Shown here piece by piece: positions 9 through 15,060 of a stretch of 64,000 bases of DNA. Source of the stretch: an uncultured Pseudomonadota bacterium (GTDB taxonomy: Bacteria; UBA10199; JADFYH01). The stretch's first letter is position 1, and each line of letters begins with the position of its first letter. A program made the translations under genes and the position numbers. Below the pieces are notes generated by a model. That model did no database searches. It saw nothing but the letters and a program-made list of their open reading frames with translations, and was not told the origin of the DNA. The stretch covers positions 5,988 to 69,987 of the forward strand of contig CAYPXN010000040.1 in assembly GCA_964414715.1 (NCBI GenBank). Direction: 5' to 3'.

Positions 9-3000
9 ATGGTGATGAAAGGTAAAGCAGGTGTTTACGAAGGAGCTCGAGCCCGTTTTTTTGGTTTCATGGTGGAAACGGGTCCTGGTTGGCGATTGGA
101 CGGTTACTTGGGCGGCACTGAAAATAATATTTCAGATCAAGATCTCGCAAAAAGTACTCTCAAGCTTGCCCAGTGGTTTGTAAAAGAAGGAAAATACTCC
201 ACCGCTGCTCAAATCGCCTCTCTTATCAGCGAAGATATCTATGTAGGGGCTGAAGCAAAAAAACTCATCGAAGAAGATATTCCCTCAAGCGCGAAGTGGG
301 ACACGATACTCAACGCAGGTCACGGGCTTTTATATTTTACTCCTCTTGCTCCCGCCGTGGCTTTTGCCGATGTTTCTTCTCCTGCAACCATTGGTGAAGA
401 AAGTGGTGATACTCATGCATTGAATGCCTTAAAGGGAGTGGCTATGAATGCTGCCACCACGATAGTCCCCTTTGGCATTGCTCGCTGGGCAAGAGTGGGA
501 GCTGAAGCTGCATTCGTTGCGCGTGCTGCGACTTTAATTGAAAATCCCGCTGCTTTCAAAATTGCTGGATTTCTAGTCGGAACCACTACTGAAGCAGGAG
601 CCTTTACTCTTTCAAACATGACACTTCAATCCATGATGACGGGAAGTACCGCTAATTGGAATATCAAAAATTTTGGAAAAGAATTTGGATCCATGATGGT
701 GACTTTTGTTCTCTTGCATGGCGTGAGCATGAGAATGGAAAAAGTTGGAAAAAGTTTAGAAAAAGCAGGCGCTCTCGATACTTCTATTGGAAAAACTACT
801 TTTGGAGCGGCTAGCTGGGGAGTACGTGTCGGATCTTTTACAGCCACTGAATATATTAATGAAGCTATTGGCTTGAAAGAGCATGAAAATGTTCCTTTAT
901 GGATGCGTTTGCTGAGCTCGGCCATCACCGATGCACAAATGGTCAAAGCCGGAAAAGTGGTAGACATCCTGAGTGGTGGAAAAATTTCTAAAACAGAACA
1001 GGCAACACAATTAAAATACAAAGCTCATGAAATATTACCGACTTTGAAAAAAATAGGTTTCGATTTTAATCCTAATCCTGACCCCGGTAGTGGCCCTGGC
1101 TCTGGAAACATAATTCATACTGACTTTTCTTCACCCTTTCCTCAAAGTCCTGCGGAACTTGTGTTAAGGATCCTTGTTCAGAACTCTGTTCAAACAGGTC
1201 GTTTGGAAACGCCTCCTCAAGATACCATTGATCGTATTCATCAAATAATTAGCGATGGAAAAACAGACCTCCACTCTCCGGAAGGGCAAGCAAAGCTGGC
1301 GCTTTGGGTAACTTATGCACTGAGAGCAGGCGAGGGAGGAAAAAGTTTAACGGGTCCTGAGTTGGAACGCAATTATCATGAGCTCGATACAGGCACAAAA
1401 ACCTTTATTCAACAATGTGGTATAGACGGCGACTCGGCCTTGGGAAAACAGATCCAGGTCGAGTTGATGAATTTTGTTCTCAGCCGAAACATTTCTCCTA
1501 CCGAGTTCGGAAAATATTTGGAACATACTTCTGATATTTATAACACTTTGCACATGATTGCCTCTTCGCTTACCGGAAAGCCTGCGAGCTCTACTCCGGA
1601 AGGTCAAAAAATTATGGCGGGACTCATGCTGAGTCTTGCCCGCTCCGGAGACAATGCAGATCATATCCACGAATTGTGCGAACGATTAAGTGATGTCGAG
1701 CATGACTTAAGGTCTACGAATTTTTTCACACTGTCCGAAGCAAACACGCCGGATCAAAAACTTGCCCTCTTGTACTGGGCGGTGGAAAATGAAGTGTCGC
1801 AGGGAGATCTTGTTAAAATTGCAAATAACATCGAAGCTGGAAAATTGCATTTCGCATGGGAAAACGGGGATGTAAACTTAAGAAAGGGAGAAGGGGTTTT
1901 TGAACTTCGACCTGAAAACATTATTCATCCTGTGAGCGATGAACAAATTATTTCAGAAACACCCATTCCAGATACGGACAAGAAAGTCGCGGACGTTCAA
2001 GCCCCTCCCGTAGATGAAGCGTCTCAACGTGTGGCAGCCAGAGGAAAAGTCCAGGCTTCCCTGGTAAAGTCTGAACCCGTTGAAATATTGAATCGCTTGG
2101 CGAAGTCTTTTGGTATTTCAAAAAATTCGAGCTTTGTTCATGATCTTTCAGGCACAACAGCAGCTCGACATATTGACCCGGCAAAAGTAGAAAGCATTCT
2201 TAAAAAACTCAATCAAGCCCTTCAGGCAACAAAAATAAATCAGCGCTCCTTTAAAAATCCTGAGGCTGTTCGTGAGGAACTTTTCAAGAGAGTGGTGGAG
2301 GGAAAAATTACTGAACCCTTTGCCCAAATGCTTTTCGAAAAATGTAAAAGCCGAGAAATTAGTCCTGAAGATTTGGATTTTGTTTTGGGTTTTGATGCGA
2401 ATGGACGCAACATAGCTCTATTGGAAGCTGTTCCTGAATTGGGAGTCCAGTCCGCTTGGTTGGAAAAACTGGTCGAAAATCCTAAAGCATTTTACGACAA
2501 AGTAAAACGAGTCACCAATACGGACGGACGCCTTTTTAACCTTTTTAATATCATTTCCAAAGGACGAGAACTTAGCAAAGATGAAAAGGCAATTTTGATT
2601 CACAACCTCGAAGAAGCGGGCTTCAAAATTCCTGCTGCAGACAAAGAACAATATTTCGACGGACTGATTAGCATTATCAAAAATTACAATTCCTTAGGGC
2701 TAGAGGAGGTTTTTTCCTCTTCGGATCTTATCACACTCATGGCGGCACTTCACATGCACGGCGCAACCCCCGTCATTTCTGAGGCAAAAATGAAAGCTCT
2801 GGAGGATATTCCAGATCTTCTCCTTCGAAGACAAGCTTTCTTAAAAGTAATTTTAGAAGGCAATATGTCTGGATCGTCAACATTTGATCCTGTACGAGTA
2901 GCAGAAGGAGTAATGAATAATAAATGGGCTAAATCTGTTTTTTTAGATTTTGAGAATTCTTCTCATACACAAGCAAGACATCTTGCAGAAGGCAGCACGC

Positions 3001-6000
3001 CTTTTGCAAAAGCAGCCAAAGATTTCTTGGCAGGTAAAATTTCCGTTAATCAATACCATGAAACCCAGGATGCAATTGCAAAGCAAATGGTAAAAGATCA
3101 TCGTGTTGCGGGGGCTAAAGTTCTCTCATTTTTAAATATTTTAAGTTCGGATCCCTCTCTTAATATCAGTAAAAAACCACCTCCAACTGCTCGAATGAAA
3201 TCTATCACTGATATCGTGCCTAAAATAATACGACGGGGTTATACTCATGATGCAGCTCTTACTGATATTGCCGCTACTCGTGTGATTGTAAAATCAAATT
3301 CCGATGTAGAAGCAGTCATCGCAAAAATTCAGGAAAAATATCCCATTCGTGAGACTTATACCAAAGAGGGAGAAATAGAACTGGATCTCATGGATCCTGC
3401 TGAAGTGAGAGCACGAGGGCTGCCTGAAGTGGAAAATGAAGTTTGGTTGGATGTAAAGCCTGACAAAGACGCCATTCATCGTTTAGTCGAAGGTCATCCA
3501 GCAAGTGGTTATCGAGCTTTGCATGTCGTGGTTGAAATAGACGGAAAGCCCGTAGAAATCCAAATCAAAACCGAAGCGATGAATGAATGGGGAGAGATCG
3601 AACATAAACTCGTTTATAAAAACAAGAATCTTCCCGATGCAGTTATGGAACCCATCAAGGCATTCCGTAAAGCAGCGGCTGATTATTTAAGCAAGGCAGA
3701 ACATCTCAAACCGGGTGAAACTTTGGGAGAAATGCCCAAAGCCCCAGATATCCCGGACAACATTCCCAATGTAGCTGAAATTCGCAAGCAATTGGAAGCC
3801 ATGACAGCGCTAATGGAAAAATACACACCGGCTGTCGATGAATCACAAATCCCGATAGGCACGGGCTACACACAGGATGTAGGACGCAATTCTCCTCAGG
3901 AAATCCAAGAGATTGGACAAAGAGGAATGGATTTTGCTCAAGCTCTTCGGGAAGGAAACGAAAAAGACATTCCGCCTGCCTGGATCAGAAATATCTCTTG
4001 GACAAGTGAATATGGAAAACCTTTCTCTCGTCAGGCAGCTCTTCTTGCACAAACAGCAGCCCGAAACATTCCAATTTTAGTTCAAGAAATCCGTGCAAAA
4101 GAAATTTCTTATAGAAAAACAGGATCCACAGAAGAAAAAGGAAGAATCCTGAATCAACTGGACGATCTGTATATTCGCCTTGATCATCACAGTCAGGACC
4201 TGGAAAGATGGAAAAGGGTTTCTGATGGCGTAACACAATACGCAAAATCAATTTCAGACTTCTCCTTTCCTTATGTTCGTGATTCGGTAAGACACAGTGT
4301 GCGAAAAAATATGATGGAAACTGGTCGAAATAGGGAACACATGCCTGAACCGCCCTTGTCTCCGGTTTCCTTCGATATAGAAAGACCTGACTGGAGTGAA
4401 AACCCTGATCTGCGGGGAAATTTGATGGAAGCAGGTTTTGCCGGGCGAGATGTTTCATTGAATGACTACTCCATTCACTTTACAGTTTCGACTGAAGCGG
4501 AGCGTCGTAGTCTTTTGAACTTTATCGAACAAAACCCTGAAAGTAGAACTTATCGTATTTCTTCCGAAAGCCCTCATGTACTTCGCGTCCGCACCCCGCA
4601 GGGAAAAGATTTTCTGCTTGAAGTTCATCTTGCAAGCGAACGAAGAAATGCGAATACAGTCCCTGCAGAAGAAGATCTCCTCTTGGCTGCGGAGGCAAAA
4701 CCAAAACCAAAAGCCGTAGAACATGTTGAGTCCGAAGCGATGGTAAATCACGACGGGGGAGAGGGAGATGTAAGCAAAAATGTTTCTCCCAACAGATCTG
4801 AAGAAGCTACCAATCCTGGCATCAGAAGAAGAGGGCTTCCGGATGGCAGCTCCGCTCTCGTTTTGGGGATTCTCGCCGGAGGAGCAGCACTTCTTTACGG
4901 TTCAGATGCTCATGCAGCTGTTCATGAAGCAGGGAAAGCGATTTCAGATCCCGGCCACCTGATTTTTGAAGGTCTAAAATATGCAGCAGGATTCATTCCT
5001 GTTTTGGGAATGTTTTTTGGAAAAGGAGGGGGTGATAAAAAAAGTGTCGCACCAAGCATGGAGGTAAAACCCAATCCTCAGGATTCCGTCATTCTAATCG
5101 GCAGGAAGTACGGGCACTTTACAAATGATACTTCTGTATCCGGAACTCACTGCACACTGTATAAAACTTCTACAGGACAATGGGTTTTGCAAGATGGCGA
5201 CGCACAAGCAGGTCAGATCAAAGCAAGTAAAAATGGGGTTAAAATTTTGGATGCCGCAGGTAATGAAACGCCTCTTCCCAGTGGAGGAAGAACTTTTTTG
5301 CAAGACGGACAAGTGATTCTTGTGGGAAAATCAGCATTCATCTTTCGATCTCCGGATGCTCCTTCTCATCTCCAACAAGCTGTTCCCGGAGTTCCGCATA
5401 ATGCTGCCGCACGGGCTAGCGTAAAGCCTGCGCGCCAAAGCCCTGTGCCTGCAATCGATTTTACACAATATCCCTCTCTGACAATCCCTTCGACTTCGAA
5501 TCCTCGTGAAGAATTTATCATTGGAAATGCTGTGTATGAAGCTGGGGGTGGACAGGTGAATCATCTCACGGAGGACGGAGACCCCCATGCACGAGTTTAT
5601 TTTTCACTTCGAACCAACATTCAGGGCAAGTGGTTTGTTTATGATGGGAGAGTTGGGGGAGCTGAAAAAAGTCCTTATGGTATCGAAGTCATGATTTCGT
5701 CCGGAGAACGAAAAAGGGTTAATGGTTTTTCAGAACTTAATCCTGGAGATTTGATTATCTACAAAACACAGCGGGGAGAGCTTGTATATCGTTTTGATGG
5801 CCAAACTTCAGAAACTCCTTCCAGACCCGTAAGCGCAAACCCGGCAGACAAGGCACCAGAACCACCTCGCGTTTTGGCAGTATATGATGTTTCCAAATTT
5901 GCAGATTTAAGCGAAAACAACCCGAACTGGAAAAACAAACAGGGAGCTATTCCTGGGGTCGCTTTTGCCTCTCATGAAGGTGTGGGATACAAAGATCACA

Positions 6001-8948
6001 ACGAAGATCGTTATTACGCGATGAATTTGGGAGATGGTCGTACCATTACTTTTGCAATCGATGGTATGGGAGGGCAGGTGGGAGCAGAAAGGGCTGCCGA
6101 GATTATTCGTTCTTCCCTCGAAAGAGCCTTTGCGGAAGGTGCCAACATTCATGAAGCCATCGATGTAGCGAAGCGCACTCTAAGGGCTGTCAATCAACCC
6201 ATTGTCGATAACTTTGTTGCAAAAGGTAAAAAAGCTTATGAAGCAGATCCTCACTTACCAGGAGCGGTAGCTGTAGGGGTAAGCACAAAGGCCATTGAAG
6301 GTGGAAAATATGAAGCAGAATTTGTCAGCATTGGAGATGCAGAAGCGATTGTCATTCGACCTTCAGCCGATGGACGTTCAGCTCCCACCGTTCCTTTTTA
6401 TACCTCTAGACCTTCTGCCATGAATCTGCTCCTGCCCGATCGTAAAACTCCCACCCTTCAAGATGGCTCAGGTCGCAGACAAAGAAACTATACACTCGTG
6501 GAACGCCTCAACCCGATTGCAAACATCGTGGCTGAAGGACTGGGTCTTTCTTCTTCTGATATTCACTCTGATAAACAGGTATTGGAAAAAGGAGATATTA
6601 TCATTTCGGGTTCCGATGGATTTTTTGAAAACTTTGGCAGCTTTGATGAAATTGCAAAAGTCGTTCAGGCAAGTGGACAAAAAACTCCCCAGGGAATTCG
6701 GGATGCCTTGATGCGGGAAGCTCTTTTGCGTCAACAATTATTGAAAATGAGACAAAGTGGAGAAGTTCTTGAACTTACACACGAGAAATATGCTCTCGCT
6801 TATCAAACACTATTCCAACAGCAAGCCCCTGCAGGATGGCGTGGAATGTATGAATCCTCTCCCTCTCAACGTTTTGTTTTGGATAATAATGGCAATGTGG
6901 GAAGATGGGAAGACGTTGATCCCGCAAGTAAAACACTCAAAGAGCTCAACAATGTCCCACTGGCGATCACACACTTCAAAAGGGATAATACGACAGTGGG
7001 AGTTCAAATCTTGGGAGACAGCACTCCTCCTGTGCCTGAAGCCAAACCTGTTAAAGTAAGTCCTCCTCCACAAGAAGCACCCGTTGCAAAAGCTCCTGTG
7101 GGCGCAAAATTTCCTGATCCCGTTGCTCCAAGAGCAGGCAATGCCTATCATGTAGATTCGAATCCCACGGTCATCATGCCTGCACTTCGTCCCGAAAAAA
7201 TTCCTTGGCAACAAGTCGTAGGCAGCCCTTATCATTCGGTCATTTTAGGAAGACCTGCCAAGCAGGCTGGAGCCTCAAACCCCGCCAATCTTTTTCCTGT
7301 CGATGACCAGGCCATCGGCAGACGTCACGCTGAAATTGTAGTTGGGGCAGATGGCACGCGTTGGTTAAGAGATCTCAGTTATCAGGGAAGCTCGAAGGGA
7401 GAAAATTATGGAACTTGGGTTGCAGAACAGAACGCCTGGAGAAAACTGGCACCTGGAGAAAATTACCCATTAAAGGCAGGACAATCTTTCGCGCTGGGAA
7501 GCGTGATTGAAGAAGGAATGTCTCTGCCTTCGACAGGTGTAGGTCTTCCCAGCAAAAAATATAACCTCGATAACAGCATCGTTTATATATTGGGAACGGA
7601 TGGAAACACCTTGTTTAGCAATTCCCGTCCAACATCGAGAGGAGATCTTCTTCAAAAACCCGCAGCAGATCCTGTTATCGCAGGACGTGCTGCAATACGT
7701 CCTGTTCCGGTGAAGGATCTTCCACACACACCCTTGAATTCTTCCGGAGTAAGAATAGAAGGGAAATTGTATGGTGAAACGCCGGTACAAAATTTTTCTC
7801 TCCAAAATGTTTCTCAAGATCCAAACAAACCCACTTGGATAAGTGTTGCTTTTGGCGATCAACCTCGCTTGATTCAAGGATTTCCGGATACTTCCGGACA
7901 ACCTTTGTTCAAGGTAACCACCCGCAATGGAAAATACTATCTGCAACTGAATGCGGATCTGAGTCATGATGGTTGGAGCATAGACGGAACTCGACGTAGT
8001 ATGGGACAACAAGTGCTGGAAGGTGGAAAAACTTATCAAATTAAGATTGGAACTCATGATTTTAGTTTAACCTTACCTACTGCAAGTCCTGTCGTGGCAG
8101 AAGCAGCTCCTCCGAATACACAAAACCTTCCCAGAGAATGGCCTCCCTTGGGCAGCGCTGATACTATTATAGGAAGGGCAGATGGAAGTATTGCCCCACT
8201 TCATGATGGAAGAGGAATAAACTTTATCGATGATAGCGAAATTCGTACTATTTTTAGCCGCGCTTCAGAAGCAAAGGGTCGAGCAGATGGTGTTCCCTTT
8301 TCTGTTGACCGCTTTGGTCGTCATGTAATTCAGCAACAGGGGCAACGAGGCTGTACCGCTGCTGCAAGCGGAATGCTTATCCTGGATCAAGGTGGAAACT
8401 TAAGTGGAAGAGAAGTAAGAACTAGAAATTTAGGGAATGAAAAAACTACCGCATCGGATATTTATTATGCAGGACTTATTCCTATTCTTCCTCGGGGTGT
8501 GCAAAATCTTGAAACAGCCATCCAAAAACACGGTTCTATGGTTGTAGGTATTGGTGGAGAAATTGGAGGACATGTTATTGTTGTCGATTATTACTCGGAA
8601 GCAGAAGGAGTCGCCAGAATTCGAGATCCTTTTCATGGCTGGAGCATTGAAACCACGACAGATGCATTGAAAAGTCGGGGGGCTCGTGTTGAAGTGGGCG
8701 CTCAAAATTTTCAAACATTTTTTGCAGGTACTGCGCTTGCTGGAGTGCGTAGCCACGAACAGCTCAAGGATCCTGTCGGACTACTGGAACAGTATCTTCA
8801 AAACAGGGGTCAATGGAACAGCAACAAAATTACTATTGATAAGTTGATTGATTATATCAGGGCTCGCAGTTTCGTCATGGATTCTTATAACGACTCCATG
8901 AAGGCAAAATTGGATACTGTTCTCAGAAAATACGCTTATCCCAACTAA
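9..8948 (+). CDS. Giant multidomain protein of at least 2979 aa, probably 5'-truncated by the window edge. Contains a RelA/SpoT-like nucleotidyltransferase domain, a hydrophobic hairpin, FHA x2, a PP2C phosphatase, FHA x2, and a C-terminal papain-like Cys/His region.
   Basis: Uninterrupted ORF of 8940 nt. The frame is also open in the 8 nt upstream of the first ATG, so the true start probably lies outside the window. Motifs read from the translation: DIAATRVIV...GYRALHVVVE...EIQIKTEAMNEWGEIEHKLVYK (Rel/SpoT synthetase signature); NEDRYY...FAIDGMGGQ...SGSDGF (PP2C); G-R / S-R-x-HA / NG-T FHA signatures (VILGRP...IGRRHAEIV...GSSKGENYGTWV). Confidence 0.85.
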   Translation: MVMKGKAGVYEGARARFFGFMVETGPGWRLDGYLGGTENNISDQDLAKSTLKLAQWFVKEGKYSTAAQIASLISEDIYVGAEAKKLIEEDIPSSAKWDTILNAGHGLLYFTPLAPAVAFADVSSPATIGEESGDTHALNALKGVAMNAATTIVPFGIARWARVGAEAAFVARAATLIENPAAFKIAGFLVGTTTEAGAFTLSNMTLQSMMTGSTANWNIKNFGKEFGSMMVTFVLLHGVSMRMEKVGKSLEKAGALDTSIGKTTFGAASWGVRVGSFTATEYINEAIGLKEHENVPLWMRLLSSAITDAQMVKAGKVVDILSGGKISKTEQATQLKYKAHEILPTLKKIGFDFNPNPDPGSGPGSGNIIHTDFSSPFPQSPAELVLRILVQNSVQTGRLETPPQDTIDRIHQIISDGKTDLHSPEGQAKLALWVTYALRAGEGGKSLTGPELERNYHELDTGTKTFIQQCGIDGDSALGKQIQVELMNFVLSRNISPTEFGKYLEHTSDIYNTLHMIASSLTGKPASSTPEGQKIMAGLMLSLARSGDNADHIHELCERLSDVEHDLRSTNFFTLSEANTPDQKLALLYWAVENEVSQGDLVKIANNIEAGKLHFAWENGDVNLRKGEGVFELRPENIIHPVSDEQIISETPIPDTDKKVADVQAPPVDEASQRVAARGKVQASLVKSEPVEILNRLAKSFGISKNSSFVHDLSGTTAARHIDPAKVESILKKLNQALQATKINQRSFKNPEAVREELFKRVVEGKITEPFAQMLFEKCKSREISPEDLDFVLGFDANGRNIALLEAVPELGVQSAWLEKLVENPKAFYDKVKRVTNTDGRLFNLFNIISKGRELSKDEKAILIHNLEEAGFKIPAADKEQYFDGLISIIKNYNSLGLEEVFSSSDLITLMAALHMHGATPVISEAKMKALEDIPDLLLRRQAFLKVILEGNMSGSSTFDPVRVAEGVMNNKWAKSVFLDFENSSHTQARHLAEGSTPFAKAAKDFLAGKISVNQYHETQDAIAKQMVKDHRVAGAKVLSFLNILSSDPSLNISKKPPPTARMKSITDIVPKIIRRGYTHDAALTDIAATRVIVKSNSDVEAVIAKIQEKYPIRETYTKEGEIELDLMDPAEVRARGLPEVENEVWLDVKPDKDAIHRLVEGHPASGYRALHVVVEIDGKPVEIQIKTEAMNEWGEIEHKLVYKNKNLPDAVMEPIKAFRKAAADYLSKAEHLKPGETLGEMPKAPDIPDNIPNVAEIRKQLEAMTALMEKYTPAVDESQIPIGTGYTQDVGRNSPQEIQEIGQRGMDFAQALREGNEKDIPPAWIRNISWTSEYGKPFSRQAALLAQTAARNIPILVQEIRAKEISYRKTGSTEEKGRILNQLDDLYIRLDHHSQDLERWKRVSDGVTQYAKSISDFSFPYVRDSVRHSVRKNMMETGRNREHMPEPPLSPVSFDIERPDWSENPDLRGNLMEAGFAGRDVSLNDYSIHFTVSTEAERRSLLNFIEQNPESRTYRISSESPHVLRVRTPQGKDFLLEVHLASERRNANTVPAEEDLLLAAEAKPKPKAVEHVESEAMVNHDGGEGDVSKNVSPNRSEEATNPGIRRRGLPDGSSALVLGILAGGAALLYGSDAHAAVHEAGKAISDPGHLIFEGLKYAAGFIPVLGMFFGKGGGDKKSVAPSMEVKPNPQDSVILIGRKYGHFTNDTSVSGTHCTLYKTSTGQWVLQDGDAQAGQIKASKNGVKILDAAGNETPLPSGGRTFLQDGQVILVGKSAFIFRSPDAPSHLQQAVPGVPHNAAARASVKPARQSPVPAIDFTQYPSLTIPSTSNPREEFIIGNAVYEAGGGQVNHLTEDGDPHARVYFSLRTNIQGKWFVYDGRVGGAEKSPYGIEVMISSGERKRVNGFSELNPGDLIIYKTQRGELVYRFDGQTSETPSRPVSANPADKAPEPPRVLAVYDVSKFADLSENNPNWKNKQGAIPGVAFASHEGVGYKDHNEDRYYAMNLGDGRTITFAIDGMGGQVGAERAAEIIRSSLERAFAEGANIHEAIDVAKRTLRAVNQPIVDNFVAKGKKAYEADPHLPGAVAVGVSTKAIEGGKYEAEFVSIGDAEAIVIRPSADGRSAPTVPFYTSRPSAMNLLLPDRKTPTLQDGSGRRQRNYTLVERLNPIANIVAEGLGLSSSDIHSDKQVLEKGDIIISGSDGFFENFGSFDEIAKVVQASGQKTPQGIRDALMREALLRQQLLKMRQSGEVLELTHEKYALAYQTLFQQQAPAGWRGMYESSPSQRFVLDNNGNVGRWEDVDPASKTLKELNNVPLAITHFKRDNTTVGVQILGDSTPPVPEAKPVKVSPPPQEAPVAKAPVGAKFPDPVAPRAGNAYHVDSNPTVIMPALRPEKIPWQQVVGSPYHSVILGRPAKQAGASNPANLFPVDDQAIGRRHAEIVVGADGTRWLRDLSYQGSSKGENYGTWVAEQNAWRKLAPGENYPLKAGQSFALGSVIEEGMSLPSTGVGLPSKKYNLDNSIVYILGTDGNTLFSNSRPTSRGDLLQKPAADPVIAGRAAIRPVPVKDLPHTPLNSSGVRIEGKLYGETPVQNFSLQNVSQDPNKPTWISVAFGDQPRLIQGFPDTSGQPLFKVTTRNGKYYLQLNADLSHDGWSIDGTRRSMGQQVLEGGKTYQIKIGTHDFSLTLPTASPVVAEAAPPNTQNLPREWPPLGSADTIIGRADGSIAPLHDGRGINFIDDSEIRTIFSRASEAKGRADGVPFSVDRFGRHVIQQQGQRGCTAAASGMLILDQGGNLSGREVRTRNLGNEKTTASDIYYAGLIPILPRGVQNLETAIQKHGSMVVGIGGEIGGHVIVVDYYSEAEGVARIRDPFHGWSIETTTDALKSRGARVEVGAQNFQTFFAGTALAGVRSHEQLKDPVGLLEQYLQNRGQWNSNKITIDKLIDYIRARSFVMDSYNDSMKAKLDTVLRKYAYPN

Positions 8949-9018: not shown

Positions 9019-11157
9019 CTAAGTCCTCCCCAAAATCCTCTTGTTCACTCCCAAATAATAACTTCTGTCTGCACGGTTGCGCAAAAACATGGGAAGATTT
9101 TCTCCAATTCTTGCTGCATCTCTCCATGTGCTTAATTCATAATGGGTCATGGTCCAGCGTTCTTCTTCGAGATAAGCCATCATTTCAGAAACGATCCTGC
9201 TGTGTCGATCCAGTGAGTAAATGACAGGGTCTGCTCCAACCTCCATTTCATCGTAATTTCCCGTCCTGTGTTTCCAGTGCTCCCATTCATGAATCAGCGC
9301 CTGCAATCGCATGACCACTTCGTCTCGAGCACGAGAAATTCCTTCGTGGGTCTGCATGTTGGGCCGAGGAATATTTTTAATTACAATCAAATCCTCAATC
9401 TCTGTTCTGGGAACAAAAAAAGCCACTCCACAGTCACTGGGGGCATGCAGGGAAGAAGCCATTTCCTGAAACTCTGCTTCATCCACAATAAGAATTTGAA
9501 AAGCATGGGAATGCCATGCCCTTTTCAAACTTTCTATATGAGGAGTAGTATTTGCTTCCAGAAGTAAAATCATTTCTTCTTCTGTAAAAGGTCTTCCTGA
9601 TTCCAGAAATGCAAAGACATTATCAAGCACTCTTCTTTTTGCTTCTTCCACCTTATGTGGATTTTTTAGAGATTCTTCCACGTCCATCATCACCGAAACC
9701 ACTTTTCTGGCCAGACGCTCATCATGGATAAAAGCAGTGGCCGAGCTTCCATTCATGAGATGAGCCACCAACTGGGGATCTATTCCATTGTTTACCATCC
9801 AAGCAATGGAGCCCAGTTTATCTTCCGAATGATCTCCTTCCGTGATTTCTTTCAGCTTGTAAGGAGAATCTTCCACTGCAAAAATTTGGCAGGCTCGTCG
9901 GAACACCAACATTCCTGCTGGACTTCGAAGGGCATAGGCGAGAACTTTATAAATATCCTTGGCCTCGTAACGTCCTCCCCTGAGCGCCTGAACAACAAGA
10001 GTAGAGTTTTTGATAAAGTCACGAAGATCCTGAAGGCTCAAACGATTCGAATAAGAAAACTCATCAAACAGCTTGTAAATTTCTGCCCGAGTGATTCCTT
10101 GCCGCATGGCCTCCAAAATTTTTCCCAAACGTTCTTGACGAAGCTGGGGAGCTTCGGAAATCCCTCGACTCAACAACTCATGCAACAACATGCGGTCAAA
10201 ACCACCTGTAGGCGTTTTATCTGCTTCGGTCGTAAAAACTTCCTGTATCCCTCGTAACACATGAAGTTGTTCCAGTGTTCCCGCTTGTGGCATGCGAGAA
10301 CAAATCTCAAGCAAGCTTGTATAATGACCCATTTTTTCAAAGGGAGTTTCCAGAGCGGTTTCAATAATTTCTTGCACATAATTGTCACGATAGGGGAGAT
10401 CGGGAAAACGCGGTTTCCATGTATCTAACCAATGTTGACGCTCGGCAGGATCCTTGAAATCAAACTCGTCTCGAGGGCTTGCAAAAACTTTCAGACCTCT
10501 TTGCATCGTTTCTTCAAAAACAAAGTCTTGCTTTGAAAGTTCCGGGCCTTGAACAAGACTCTCCATGGCTTTTGTTTCACGAGCTGATATTCCCCCGGTA
10601 ACCAGTTCTCCCAAACTCATTCCCACACCCATTGCCGTATTGGTCATTTCGGCGTGGAGATATTGCTGAGTGAGAGATCCTTCAGGAGCAAGAGTCAGGT
10701 GTAGGGCATAGCTGAGATGTTCTCCCGCCACCATTCCCGTATCCTGGATAAAATGATTGAGGAACAAATGGGAGCTGCCCAATTTCCCAAAAAGTTTCAG
10801 ATTGGCAAAGTTCAGGTAAGTGCCCAGAAATTCTTCGCGCGAAAAAACAGAGGAGAGGGAAGCGTTGTTTAAAAGAATTTGACTTCCGCGATAGGCACTC
10901 ACTTCTGTAAAAAGACCCACCAAAGGAGCCAAGACTTTGCCGGCAAGAGGAGCAATGGCATCATTGGCCAAAACAGCCGCTTTTCCAAAGCGATAAGCGA
11001 GCCCGCCTGCCATCATGGAAAGAGTGTTTCTCCAATTGCACGCCTCTTCCATGAACTGGTGATCCAGGGCATCCATTTCCCTTTGTTGGGAAGTCAAGTT
11101 GTGGGAGGAAGGCAAGGATGAGCTCACGCTCATTCTGCGATCCAAGAGGTTCATCAT
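9019..11157 (-). CDS. Hypothetical 712-aa protein with a C-terminal HExxH (HEWEH) zinc-metallopeptidase-like motif. Convergent with the giant gene. No signal peptide.
   Basis: A 2.1-kb ORF cannot be chance. The motif LIHEWEHWKH lies near the C-terminus. The stop codon is TAG. No family recognised by eye. Confidence 0.7.
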   Translation of the reverse strand: MMNLLDRRMSVSSSLPSSHNLTSQQREMDALDHQFMEEACNWRNTLSMMAGGLAYRFGKAAVLANDAIAPLAGKVLAPLVGLFTEVSAYRGSQILLNNASLSSVFSREEFLGTYLNFANLKLFGKLGSSHLFLNHFIQDTGMVAGEHLSYALHLTLAPEGSLTQQYLHAEMTNTAMGVGMSLGELVTGGISARETKAMESLVQGPELSKQDFVFEETMQRGLKVFASPRDEFDFKDPAERQHWLDTWKPRFPDLPYRDNYVQEIIETALETPFEKMGHYTSLLEICSRMPQAGTLEQLHVLRGIQEVFTTEADKTPTGGFDRMLLHELLSRGISEAPQLRQERLGKILEAMRQGITRAEIYKLFDEFSYSNRLSLQDLRDFIKNSTLVVQALRGGRYEAKDIYKVLAYALRSPAGMLVFRRACQIFAVEDSPYKLKEITEGDHSEDKLGSIAWMVNNGIDPQLVAHLMNGSSATAFIHDERLARKVVSVMMDVEESLKNPHKVEEAKRRVLDNVFAFLESGRPFTEEEMILLLEANTTPHIESLKRAWHSHAFQILIVDEAEFQEMASSLHAPSDCGVAFFVPRTEIEDLIVIKNIPRPNMQTHEGISRARDEVVMRLQALIHEWEHWKHRTGNYDEMEVGADPVIYSLDRHSRIVSEMMAYLEEERWTMTHYELSTWRDAARIGENLPMFLRNRADRSYYLGVNKRILGRT

Positions 11158-11398
11158 CGTTGTGCCCCGTATGAGCTATCATCAAAAACCGATAGCTGCC
11201 CCCGTTATGATTTTTTGAACTAAAACTTTTTCGGAGATTTTGCTCAAAAGTTGCCCTAGAAATCAGGGTTTATAAAAACTTTAATTATGACGCAGAGTGT
11301 TGAAATAAGGGCATTTTCACTGCTTTCCTATCGCAACATTTTTTGTTTGCGACCGATAACTATAAATGTATGAGGGCTATAATTTGGGAGGTTTTAAT

Positions 11399-12406
11399 AT
11401 GCAGGATAGGGGAAAAAAATTAAGTCGATGGATTTATAGTGTACTGACGGCTTTGATCTTTACTTTCGGTGCCTTCGCCTGCGGCGGGGGAGATCAAGCT
11501 CAAGTCGGCGGCATTATCGGAACGGTTTCTTTTAATACCCAAGCTTGCGTGCCTCAACAAAAAATCATCAATTTTCGTAACAGCGATACCCAAAATCCCC
11601 AACGTGTAATGGGCGTTTCCTTTGAATTGGGGACGAATGATAATGGTAATTACAAAATTGATAAAGTGGTGGTTGGCGCTACTGAATATCAACCGAGTTC
11701 AAATTTAGCACAAGATGTATTGATACCTGCCGGTGGTATCATGTCTGTATATACTACTTATACTCCTCGAGTAATTACAACAAAAACAGGCCACAATCTT
11801 AGTTATTTAGATCTGTTTTTAAATGGTCCAAAATTGGGAATTCTCCAAATAAAACTAGATGGTGAGTCGGATACGGCAAAAGAAGGTTGTTCTTCTGACA
11901 ATAAAAAAACATTCAAAGTTACCAAAGCAACTTTCATTATGAATCATCAAGATTTTACTTCAGGGCAACCTAGAGAGTTTGATCTCACAATCAAAAAAGG
12001 AGATTTAAATTTAGGCATGGGAAGTGACGGAAGTTTAACTTTAAGTGAAAGTTCAGATTTTCCTACTTTAACATTACCGCTACCTCCTGAATTGGGTGCT
12101 CCAGTGCCCGAATTAGATATTACCATGGATGCTGGAAGCTACACAGGCACACTTGATGACCAAGGAAAAATGGAGCTCCAAAATTTAAATTTAAAAGCAC
12201 TCGTTATCCCAATTCCAAATGTTACTTTAACAACTGAGCCGGCAAGTATTACTCAACCTAAGGGTAGTGTTAGTGTCGAAGGAAAGAGATTAGCTGATAA
12301 TAAAGCAACACTTGTTGCAGCTATACCAGTCCCCGACGATAGCAACTTAGCAAAACTTAAAGATGGTGCTTTTGGCTTAAAAATAGAAATTGAAGCTCAA
12401 CAATAA
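11399..12406 (+). CDS. Putative lipoprotein, paralog 1 of a tandem pair, with a conserved N-terminal domain and divergent C-terminus.
   Basis: GGGAGG RBS 8 nt upstream of the ATG at 11399. N-terminal signal peptide followed by Cys (FAC-GGG). The first ~170 residues are nearly identical to the downstream paralog. Confidence 0.75.
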   Translation: MQDRGKKLSRWIYSVLTALIFTFGAFACGGGDQAQVGGIIGTVSFNTQACVPQQKIINFRNSDTQNPQRVMGVSFELGTNDNGNYKIDKVVVGATEYQPSSNLAQDVLIPAGGIMSVYTTYTPRVITTKTGHNLSYLDLFLNGPKLGILQIKLDGESDTAKEGCSSDNKKTFKVTKATFIMNHQDFTSGQPREFDLTIKKGDLNLGMGSDGSLTLSESSDFPTLTLPLPPELGAPVPELDITMDAGSYTGTLDDQGKMELQNLNLKALVIPIPNVTLTTEPASITQPKGSVSVEGKRLADNKATLVAAIPVPDDSNLAKLKDGAFGLKIEIEAQQ

Positions 12407-12428
12407 AAACAAACAATTATAAATTGTC

Positions 12429-13448
12429 ATGGGGCACCGGAGAAATCTCATGACAAATCAAAATTCTAAATCCATTCGAACTTTATATTATTATCTGATT
12501 GCAATGTTTATTTGCACCTTTGGTGCTCTTTCTTGCGGTGGAGGAGATCAAGCTCAAGTCGGCGGCATTATCGGAACGGTTTCTTTCAATACCCAAGCCT
12601 GCGTACCCCAACAAAAAATCATCAATTTTCGTAACAGCGATACCCAAAACCCCCAACGTGTAATGGGCGTTTCCTTTGAATTGGGGACGAATGATCAAAA
12701 TAAATATAAAATTGATAAAGTGGTAGTGGGTAATACTGAATATCAGCCTTCCGCAAATTTAGCACAAAATGTATTGATCCCTGCAGGGGGCATCATGAGT
12801 GTCTATACTACTTATAAAACTACTAAAGTTACAGGCTCCTCTAACGACACTTCCTATCTCGACCTATTTTTAAATGGCCCTAAACTTGGTATTTTACAAA
12901 TCAGAATGAATGGACAAGCCCCTACTGCAAAAGAAGGCTGTGGAGAAGGGGAAACAATGACCTTTACCGTTAACAAGGCGACCATGGAAATTAGTATGCC
13001 TGGCAGTTCATTTGATGGTTTTAAAAATGAGGTAACTGCAACAGGTAATTTTGTTTTCCTAGTTGCTGGAGATGGTAGTGCTACTATTGATAAAGATGGT
13101 TTTCCAAAGTTAACCTTTGTTTCTGAAGCATTAAGATCCACTCCTGTAAACAGCAATCAACTCGAGATTAAATTGGATAACGACACCTTTACAGGTACAT
13201 TTACCGACAATAAACTATCAATCGATCATTTAAAGTTAAATGCTCTATTGCCTATTGATGGCGTCACGCTCAAATCCGAAGATCTTGCCATCACAGGTGA
13301 CAATGGTGCCTCCTTAACTCTGCATGGATCAGCTTTAACTGATTCAGGAGATATGAAAGTAGTCATAGGTGTAAAAGTACAAGGATTTAATGCTGCTTTA
13401 GACGGTGCAGCAATCGGAGTGACTTTCGAACTTAAAAAACAGAATTAA
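12429..13448 (+). CDS. Putative lipoprotein, paralog 2 of the tandem pair. Alternative start ATG at 12450.
   Basis: Signal peptide with an ALSC lipobox-like motif. The mature N-terminus (GGDQAQVGGIIGTVSFNTQACVPQQKIINFRNSDTQNPQRVMGVSFELGTND) is identical to paralog 1. Confidence 0.75.
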   Translation: MGHRRNLMTNQNSKSIRTLYYYLIAMFICTFGALSCGGGDQAQVGGIIGTVSFNTQACVPQQKIINFRNSDTQNPQRVMGVSFELGTNDQNKYKIDKVVVGNTEYQPSANLAQNVLIPAGGIMSVYTTYKTTKVTGSSNDTSYLDLFLNGPKLGILQIRMNGQAPTAKEGCGEGETMTFTVNKATMEISMPGSSFDGFKNEVTATGNFVFLVAGDGSATIDKDGFPKLTFVSEALRSTPVNSNQLEIKLDNDTFTGTFTDNKLSIDHLKLNALLPIDGVTLKSEDLAITGDNGASLTLHGSALTDSGDMKVVIGVKVQGFNAALDGAAIGVTFELKKQN

Positions 13449-13466: not shown

Positions 13467-13504
13467 AAAACCCCTAATTGGAATTTCCAATTAGGGGTTT
13501 TTTA
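13467..13504. terminator. Bidirectional rho-independent terminator between convergent genes.
   Basis: aaaa-CCCCTAATTGG-aattt-CCAATTAGGGG-tttttt: perfect 11-bp stem, A-run on one side and T-run on the other. Confidence 0.8.
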
Positions 13505-13506
13505 TT

Positions 13507-14070
13507 CTATTCGCGTGGACAGCAGGCTAGAAAAATAGTTATGCTAACATTTGTTGTTGCATTTGGAGTAAGCACACTACAATACCTACCTCTAATAATA
13601 GCCTCCGAATCAGGAATGCCCCCAAAACACAATGCACCAGGAACAATAAAACTTTTTATTGCTGAACTACATGGACCCTCTAGAAACCAAGTAGGAATTG
13701 CACCATTGGTAGAAATACTACAACCTCCACTTACAGCCACTTGACCAGAGCCGCAATCTAATTCACCTGTAACACCTTGCCTGGCAGTGAAACTTCTGTG
13801 CACTTCCCTACAGCCACTCCAAAGAATCCCAGGCCCCCTCGGCCCAGCAGGCCCTTGCAAACCCATCGGACCTATTGGTCCCTGAGGCCCCTGAATTCCT
13901 TGGGGCCCACGCTCTCCCGCTCTCCCTGGAGGGCCTTGAGGACCCGGATCTCCCGTGAAGCCTCTAGGGCCTTCACTTCCATTTTCTCCTCGCGGACCTC
14001 TTTCTCCAGTACAGCTTTCTAATAACAAGCCTGCCAAAGCAACGGCTCCAATAGCAACAATGGGCAGCAT
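13507..14070 (-). CDS. Collagen-like triple-helix repeat protein (about 25 G-X-Y triplets) with an N-terminal hydrophobic anchor or signal and a Cys-rich C-terminal globular domain.
   Basis: Translation [70 protein letters not shown] 7 nt upstream of the second ATG ([10 protein letters not shown]...). The ORF track starts 11 codons earlier. Confidence 0.75.
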
Positions 14071-14775: not shown

Positions 14776-15060
14776 TTAGTATAAGTGAGAACTTAGATCT
14801 TTCCATTCATGGTTAAGAACTTCTATTAAAGCAACTTTCTTTTTTCTGGAACCTGCCTTTATTTGTTTTTCTCTTTGGATTGCATTTTCAGGATCATCGA
14901 ATACTTCGCAGTAAACAAGTTTGTTTAAATTATACTTCTTCACAAATCCAATACTCTCTTTTGACAGATGTTCATTCAATCTGCGTGATAAGTTATTCGT
15001 AACCCCAGTATAGAGAACAGTATTTCTAGAATTTGTGAGAATATAAACGAAATATGGCAT
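14776..15060 (-). CDS. Small GIY-YIG nuclease superfamily protein (COG2827/UPF0213-like).
   Basis: Translation YFVYILTNSRNTVLYTGVTNNLSRRLNEH carries the GIY...YIG motif. Total length 94 aa. Confidence 0.8.
   Translation of the reverse strand: MPYFVYILTNSRNTVLYTGVTNNLSRRLNEHLSKESIGFVKKYNLNKLVYCEVFDDPENAIQREKQIKAGSRKKKVALIEVLNHEWKDLSSHLY

Follow-up and report, generated by a model that had tools for sequence, protein, structure and literature searches.

The window analysed here, a stretch of 64,000 nucleotides (nt) from an uncultured Pseudomonadota bacterium (GTDB lineage UBA10199, JADFYH01; assembly GCA_964414715.1, contig CAYPXN010000040.1, positions 5,988 to 69,987 of the forward strand), carries two tandem genes, A and B, which encode paralogous lipoproteins. 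Both genes share a nearly identical segment, the tract, at the start of the region encoding their N-terminal domain, and differ strongly in their C-terminal domains. The explanation favoured here, with considerable confidence, is concerted evolution by segmental gene conversion at the start of the N-domain, combined with modular C-domains that are distributed discordantly with the relatedness of the genomes, at a locus within the conserved core genome.

The tract and its silent sites

The tract spans positions 11489-11640 in gene A and 12543-12694 in gene B (offset 1054 nt), and the two copies of 152 nt differ at five positions (96.7% identity), as an earlier sequence-only reading of this DNA had described with about 97% identity and about five differences. 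All five mismatches (11533, 11545, 11551, 11554 and 11596) are synonymous third-codon-position transitions, and the 51 encoded residues are identical in A and B. A 41-nt probe from the tract matches two sites only in the 64 kb, with a chance expectation of 0 matches, and the sole long direct repeat of the window (300 nt, 86% identity) lies at 11453-11752 and 12507-12806. The identity was thought to begin exactly after the lipobox cysteine; it begins two glycine codons later (the Cys28 codon of A is at 11480-11482 and the Cys29 codon of B at 12534-12536). Four of the five mismatches fall within 22 nt (11533-11554), and the exact blocks measure 44, 41 and 44 nt; such clustering could stem from two distinct patches of conversion or repair instead of one event.

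The divergence between A and B is graded and not two-state. The signal peptides share 43% amino acid (aa) identity, the tract 100% aa and 97% nt identity, the 40 codons next after the tract 85% aa and about 80% nt identity, the remainder of the N-domain 60% aa identity and the C-terminal domain 32% aa identity across 158 aligned residues.

The proportions of synonymous (pS) and nonsynonymous (pN) differences were calculated by segment according to Nei and Gojobori. Between A and B, pS is 0.15 and pN 0 in the tract, 0.45 and 0.14 in the following 40 codons, 0.78 and 0.18 in the SYLDLFLNGPKLGILQ...EGC block, which is conserved at the amino acid level, and 0.68 and 0.52 in the C-domain; the signal peptides 5' of the tract have a pN of 0.43. 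At degenerate codons that encode the same amino acid in A and B, the same codon is used at 44 of 49 positions in the tract versus 57 of 122 outside (Fisher p = 1e-7). About 30 related loci were fetched and compared, one of which, the syntenic locus L001, also carries a tandem pair (genes a and b); here, the same codon is found at 36 of 45 positions in the tract versus 33 of 95 outside (p = 6e-7). The identity of the tract exceeds what protein constraint requires, and the zone after 11640, with its pS of 0.45, is older or partly converted.

The comparison of gene A with its orthologue, L001 gene a, served as a control and gave 18 of 38 same codons in the tract versus 84 of 185 outside (p = 0.86). 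The tract pS of this pair is 0.80 and therefore saturated; it ranges from 0.66 to 0.80 between the window genes and their orthologues and from 0.58 to 0.91 between genomes overall. Codon bias or nucleotide-level constraint does not account for the identity, since orthologues are saturated in the tract and the codon test gives no signal. It is accordingly very improbable that the tract was kept identical without recombination, through very strong purifying selection and codon bias. Conservation within the family is indeed highest in the tract (aa identity 0.61 as a pairwise mean), and a core of about 45 nt (FNTQACVPQQKIINx) is 82-91% identical even between genomes; however, silent sites of orthologous tracts are saturated (pS 0.66-0.91), and the downstream block with equal aa conservation reaches a pS of 0.78 between A and B. 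A nucleic-acid element inside both coding regions, i.e., an RNA structure or a regulatory or recombination site conserved at the DNA level, has an even smaller chance of being the cause. DNA identity above the need of the protein and the position of the tract near the 5' end of both mRNAs would fit such an element, but Rfam gave no match in the tract and just two sub-threshold matches over the terminator hairpin downstream of gene B, the silent sites of the segment vary between genomes, and the five differences are random third-position transitions.

The tandem arrangement is not an assembly artefact, as five other samples yielded contigs (L037-L041) that match the window at 99.85-100% identity; L037 (17.8 kb) and L038 cover both tract copies. 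The repeat fragments short-read assemblies at this locus: contigs L040 and L039 begin within tract copy 1 (window positions 11587 and 11597) and L041 begins just upstream of gene B (12420). The first two of these contig ends would be in line with a tandem arrangement or identical stretch produced by the assembly of mixed strains. The probability of this is negligible, because L037 and L038 stem from independent samples and match across both genes at 99.99-100%, one further contig was produced by a different assembler, and no exact-match block is longer than 45 nt, a length well under the k-mer sizes used.

Histories of the tract and the C-domain in related genomes

Tandem pairs are found at 3 of the about 30 loci, namely in the window, in L001 (10109-11101 and 11132-12070) and in L036 (158-1153 and 1183 to the contig end), and none of these loci contains a copy beyond two. 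The search for further copies of the conserved 5' cassette, proposed as a check in the sequence-only reading, thus gave none in the 64 kb; tandem pairs recur in L001 and L036. In the L001 pair, the tract segment is 93-98% identical between the copies, with a pS of 0.26 in the core window and 0.36 in the whole tract versus 0.7-0.85 elsewhere. Both L036 copies carry EMSFST and NAKS, which occur in no other member, and A and B have eight tract residues in common that are absent from every other family member.

Neighbour-joining trees with bootstrap were calculated separately for the tract and the C-domain. In the tract tree, A groups with B (bootstrap 100%), the two L001 genes group with the single gene of L002 (81%), and the two L036 genes group together (89%). 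In the C-domain tree, A is joined to L001 gene a (100%), B to the L002 gene (100%) and, one step further, to L036 gene 1 (B, L002 and L036 gene 1, 100%), and L001 gene b to the gene of L032 (99%), whereas a grouping of A with B is found in 0% of replicates. The tract groups by genome and the C-domain by type across genomes. Paralogues that resemble one another more closely than they do their orthologues, as in the definition of concerted evolution (PMC6053082), are observed for the tract only. At least one other genome with a tandem pair, and probably two, homogenised the tract independently, with L001 being significant and L036 suggestive only. Gene conversion, as proposed from the sequence, is borne out by a pS depression that is confined to genes of the same genome and is seen in three genomes, and by the conflict between tract and C-domain trees at 100% bootstrap.

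The C-terminal domains represent old, discrete types (A, B, C and D), each of which appears to be under purifying selection, as indicated by low pN values (0.13-0.28) and saturated pS between C-domains of the same type. The type-A domain of gene A has its orthologue in L001 gene a (pN 0.22, pS saturated), and the type-B domain of gene B is nearest to the single-copy gene of L002 (pN 0.13) and to L036 gene 1 (pN 0.28). A recent tandem duplication in each genome, followed by very fast divergence of the C-terminal halves and signal peptides under positive selection, would agree with the presence of tandem pairs at just 3 of about 30 loci, which suggests that the duplication is not ancient family-wide. 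This scenario is nevertheless hardly credible, being only marginally more probable than selection on the tract without recombination. For each of the two C-domains there is a clear orthologue in another genome, with low pN, saturated pS and 100% bootstrap, so the types pre-date the splits of the genomes, and outside the tract the saturation of pS between the two genes points to old divergence instead of fast amino acid change. Moreover, diverged sequence borders the tract on its 5' and 3' sides; such an internal patch is a signature of conversion and argues against a simple recent duplication.

The distribution of C-domain types is discordant with the relatedness of the genomes. The flanks of L001 and L002 share 84-91% nt identity; their homology breaks inside the lipoprotein gene (L001 10596, L002 10488) and returns only in the collagen-like gene (12614 and 11525, respectively). 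A similar break extends from 10467 to 11506 between L003 and L004. The single gene of L002 is 97-98% identical to L001 gene a in the signal peptide and 89-98% in the tract, and past the tract it is of type B (pN 0.13 to gene B); recombination inside the conserved tract would produce just such a chimera. In L036 gene 1, likewise, the signal peptide is A-like and the C-domain B-like. This discordance may have arisen by deletion from a larger ancestral array or by import of a foreign C-terminal half, and the two origins are about equally likely.

In its strict form, the first of these possibilities explains the cross-genome pattern by differential loss from an ancestral array of at least three tandem copies through inter-tract deletions and dispenses with any lateral or allelic exchange; it is given somewhat less than an even chance. 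The L002 gene is the exact chimera that a tract-to-tract deletion in an a-B pair would leave (5' part 97-98% identical to L001 gene a, 3' part of type B), L036 gene 1 has a corresponding composition, and the saturated pS within types is compatible with vertical descent. On the other hand, the single copies of the close relatives L003, L004 and L032 have differing C-domains, which would require a large array and many independent losses, and the heads of the adjacent collagen-like genes were swapped too. The cassette-type recombination of the sequence-only reading is retained only in a loose sense: type discordance and chimeric genes such as that of L002 speak for it, but there are no silent cassettes, only two copies exist, and differential loss could explain the pattern.

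Several observations weigh against conversion with C-domain exchange as the full explanation. Part of the tract identity is due to constraint on two-fold degenerate codons, as follows from the 45-nt core that is similar between genomes. The second L036 gene is partial (84 aa, contig end), and its codon test is not significant (p = 0.31). The tract pS of the L001 paralogues (0.36) is no lower than the divergence between L001 and L002 (0.32), so the event in L001 is older, and genes a and b of L001 alone form no supported clade in the tract tree. Conversion in progress, the 'ongoing' conversion of the sequence-only reading, was not seen among the five strain-level contigs, which hold no informative variants. 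Differential loss instead of exchange could be the source of the C-domain discordance. Finally, no gene neighbour is conserved across the family, and distant members lie among unrelated housekeeping genes; in the absence of common neighbours, no pathway can be inferred.

According to the conversion model, a segment of about 150 nt at the start of the N-domain would have been copied from one gene to the other by non-reciprocal homologous recombination, so recently that the copies have since acquired no more than five silent transitions. The adjacent segment of about 120 nt would carry the trace of older or less frequent conversion, with the rest of both genes being saturated at silent sites. 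RecA-type recombination between the tandem copies, acting repeatedly, could account for this. The tract ends at the codons after ELGTN, where heterology at a variable loop probably halts branch migration; this loop is indel-prone in the family, with insertions of 10-20 aa in P0013, P0015 and P0017. The membrane-proximal N-domain would thereby be kept uniform, perhaps for a common partner, and the distal C-domains would remain distinct. The conserved N-domain DNA would serve as a homology anchor for conversion between the copies as well as for deletion or fusion leading to chimeric single genes, and possibly also for allelic replacement of the C-terminal half between lineages. The signature of conversion and its recurrence, the disagreement of the trees and the breakpoints of replacement are direct observations. 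The pattern suggests that C-domain diversity may be maintained by diversifying selection, e.g., phage or cell-cell recognition.

The locus, its neighbours and the protein family

Table 1. Positions of genes, domains and signals at the A-B locus (window coordinates)
Feature	Position	Strand	Basis or remark
Gene A ribosome-binding site (RBS), GGGAGG	11386..11391	+	7 nt ahead of ATG; read from sequence
Gene A, lipoprotein P0001, 335 aa, type-A C-terminal domain	11399..12406	+	Open reading frame (ORF); identical database protein; AlphaFold2 (AF2) model
Gene A signal peptide and lipobox ALIFTFGAFAC, Cys28	11399..11482	+	PROSITE-like lipobox regular expression; model helix 5-25
Putative conversion tract copy 1, residues G31-D81 of A	11489..11640	+	Nucleotide comparison, pS/pN, Fisher test
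Extended repeat copy 1, 86% ungapped identity to copy 2	11453..11752	+	Direct-repeat search
C-terminal beta domain of A, type A	11909..12403	+	AF2 model, pN/pS, trees
A-B spacer, 43 nt; gene B RBS GGAG at 12439-12442	12407..12449	+	Sequence reading
Gene B, lipoprotein P0003, 332 aa, type-B C-terminal domain	12450..13448	+	ORF; database protein match
Gene B signal peptide and lipobox MFICTFGALSC, Cys29	12450..12536	+	Lipobox regular expression
Putative conversion tract copy 2, residues G32-D82 of B	12543..12694	+	Nucleotide comparison, pS/pN, Fisher test
Extended repeat copy 2	12507..12806	+	Direct-repeat search
C-terminal beta domain of B, type B	12960..13445	+	pN/pS, trees
Perfect 16-bp-stem hairpin followed by T run, terminator	13467..13501	.	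Common to gene B and the convergent collagen-like gene
Convergent collagen-like lipoprotein gene, 187 aa, Cys-rich C-terminal head	13507..14070	-	Pfam Collagen

The Shine-Dalgarno sequence of gene B is located 7 nt upstream of the start codon, as in gene A. No credible terminator was seen in the spacer between the genes, and a hairpin with a T run follows gene B; A and B are thus likely co-transcribed as a single transcript. In-frame ATGs, taken as ORF starts in the sequence-only reading, are present upstream at 11366 and 12429, and the database proteins P0001 and P0003 match the shorter forms starting at 11399 and 12450. A run of seven A follows GGGG at 11412-11418 (codons 5-7, in the signal peptide of gene A); its length is insufficient for a phase-variation tract and does not vary among the five strain contigs. 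Tandem Repeats Finder detected no tandem repeats within A or B.

The proteins belong to a family that is rare, restricted to uncultured bacteria and unannotated, with 17 members at E < 1e-3 in a set of 5.8 billion proteins and 92 representatives in a set of 1.84 billion. The related metagenome-assembled genomes are labelled 'bacterium' (with isolate names like STL-UBA1, STL-UBA2 and UBA10199-1), Deltaproteobacteria, Myxococcota or 'uncultured Pseudomonadota'. Profile searches with A, B and the 17-member alignment against Pfam, NCBIfam, PADLOC and PDB sequences yielded no family and only sub-threshold noise, with faint Pfam hints at Cep192_D4 and TMEM131_like_N. A literature search for UBA10199 found nothing on this lipoprotein family, and a scan of viral contigs found no relative and thus no link to phages.

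Lipoprotein signals were defined by a basic n-region, a hydrophobic h-region and the lipobox [LIVMFWSTAG]2-[LIVMFYSTAGCQ]-[AGS]-C with the cysteine at residues 15-35. Both A (MQDRGKK...ALIFTFGAFAC, Cys28) and B (MTNQNSK...MFICTFGALSC, Cys29) have such a signal. Of the 17 family members, 14 have a PROSITE-type signal (PS51257), and the remaining three keep a cysteine at the aligned position. A and B are presumed to be lipidated and exposed on the cell surface, and the view that they are variable surface proteins is plausible. The AF2 model of A (mean predicted local distance difference test score 84) shows a signal helix (residues 5-25), a low-confidence linker and two all-beta domains (38-156 and 169-333), which gives a predicted architecture of signal peptide and lipobox cysteine, short glycine linker, conserved N-terminal beta-sandwich and variable C-terminal beta-sandwich. 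Across the family, Cys49 (in ACVPQ) and Cys164 (in EGC) do not vary, and they may form a disulfide. Foldseek returned generic beta-sandwich matches only (the ASH/PapD-like domains of CEP192 and Hydin, 3sot and the FmlH lectin) with template modelling (TM) scores of 0.2-0.5; the Foldseek probability was 0.95-1.0 for 3sot, the CEP192 SPD-2/ASH domain and Hydin.

The locus lies within a conserved core region that comprises the collagen-like gene, a gene for a protein of 159-172 aa, and genes for AhpC, NUDIX, S20, MurJ, a class-II aminoacyl-tRNA synthetase and FtsX/MacB. The collagen-like neighbour is restricted to a close clade, and in relatives its head is replaced along with the lipoprotein C-domain. 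The collagen-like genes that were compared (window 13507-14070 on the minus strand; L001 12184-12804 and 12914-13864; L002 11035-11697 and 11794-12774) encode convergent lipoproteins that are themselves mosaic. The window protein has the N-terminal part of the 'col1' genes (MLPIVAIG...LESC), but its Cys-rich head is that of L001 'col2' (47% identity). The heads of both collagen genes differ between the close relatives L001 and L002; one of the L002 heads is unrelated and contains two cysteines, whereas the remaining heads contain eight or nine. Recombination may be anchored in the collagen repeats. The 'type-1' collagen head and the type-A lipoprotein occur together in two genomes only, those of the window and L001.

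A more far-reaching scenario, to which only a low probability is assigned, regards the locus as a polymorphic surface-recognition region. C-domains and collagen heads would be exchanged between lineages as modules, with the tract and the collagen repeats serving as anchors and the N-domain being kept uniform for one partner. The type-A lipoprotein and the 'type-1' head could then represent a receptor-ligand pair involved in phage-receptor variation or self/non-self recognition.

On the other side of the lipoprotein genes, a giant ORF of at least 2979 aa (window 9-8948, plus strand), which continues past the start of the window, contains RelA/SpoT synthetase-like and FHA domains as well as a weak PP2C/SpoIIE match. 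L001, L002 and L042 have counterparts of 2663-3965 aa, and the architecture is unusual. A 712-aa protein (9019-11157, minus strand) contains a HEWEH (HExxH-like) motif near its C-terminus and has no Pfam, NCBIfam or PADLOC match; its gene is a kept neighbour in L001, L002 and L042 and is absent from L003, L004 and L032. Both genes were considered as parts of a module with the lipoproteins and dropped, as they are absent at the lipoprotein-bearing loci L003, L004 and L032. A small GIY-YIG gene (94 aa; 14776-15060, minus strand), flanked by the 159-aa gene and AhpC, is present in the strain contig L037 and absent at this position in L001-L004. This looks like the insertion of a selfish or nuclease gene. 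Toxin-antitoxin pairs were found in relatives (ParE with an Unstab_antitox antitoxin and BrnT with a CopG-like antitoxin; L003 11815-12334 and L042 11535-12081). These insertions at differing points fit the idea that the conserved region is an insertion hotspot.

Comparison with known systems

The conversion mechanism is textbook knowledge; the concerted evolution described here is unsurprising and adds no new principle. Genes A and B provide a well-controlled natural case of sub-genic conversion, in which part of one domain is homogenised in several lineages and the adjoining domain persists as discrete ancient types. The lipoprotein family and its collagen-like neighbours form a hypervariable spot in an otherwise conserved core-genome region. 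Such spots usually mark molecules met by phages or neighbouring cells, and the locus is thus a candidate handle on the surface biology of a lineage without a cultured member.

A polymorphic toxin/immunity or anti-phage module was rejected: A, B and their neighbours have no such match in Pfam, NCBIfam or PADLOC, no small ORF follows gene A or gene B, and the terminator lies directly past B. The receptor/immunity module suggested by the sequence-only reading thus lacks support, as no toxin, immunity or defence match was obtained. The Bacteroides SusE/F-like protein BACOVA_03322 (PDB 3sot) resembles A and B in being a lipoprotein with tandem beta-sandwich domains. However, both this protein and the ASH/PapD-like domains reach TM-scores of 0.2-0.5 without a sequence-level match, and A and B lack the context of a polysaccharide utilization locus or SusC/D.

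Systems of the Mycoplasma Vsp/Vlp/Vsa type are characterized by a conserved 5' untranslated region and signal peptide, a tandem-repeat C-terminus and an invertible promoter or homopolymer switch. This type was rejected, as the signal peptides belong to the most divergent parts of A and B (43% aa identity) and the genes contain no tandem repeats; no recombinase was found near A and B, and the sole homopolymer is the A7 run. In Neisseria pilE/pilS and Borrelia vlsE, surface-protein genes undergo conversion, with conserved anchors and variable segments. An expression locus with promoterless, truncated donors was not seen in the 64 kb, which hold two full-length genes with RBS, start codon and signal peptide; in addition, the conserved part of A and B is converted and not the variable part. 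Leptospira LigA and LigB are paralogous beta-sandwich lipoproteins with near-identical N-terminal and divergent C-terminal parts, for which interspecies mosaicism has been reported. The Lig proteins contain many Big_2 repeats and an identical region of about 630 aa, whereas A and B have two domains only, no Big or other Pfam domain and a tract of about 50 aa.

Concerted evolution, in which paralogues of one genome are more alike than orthologues, recurs across lineages, e.g., in tuf and amoCAB (PMC6053082). In these cases, whole genes of core complexes are homogenised, whereas in A and B only a sub-domain segment is affected and the rest is kept different. The closest analogue of the A/B pattern appears to be the outer-membrane protein paralogues babA/babB and homA/homB of Helicobacter pylori, where one segment is similar within a strain owing to intragenomic recombination, another is grouped by allele type between strains, and chimeras arise when paralogues recombine (reviewed in PMC3960876). 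By analogy, A and B also have a genome-homogenised segment, a type-grouped segment and chimeric genes among their relatives. The H. pylori proteins are Hop-family beta-barrels encoded at dispersed loci, in which the 3' segment is homogenised and which function as host adhesins. In contrast, A and B are tandem lipoprotein genes of an environmental, uncultured host, have no sequence relationship to the Hop proteins and are homogenised in the 5' segment.

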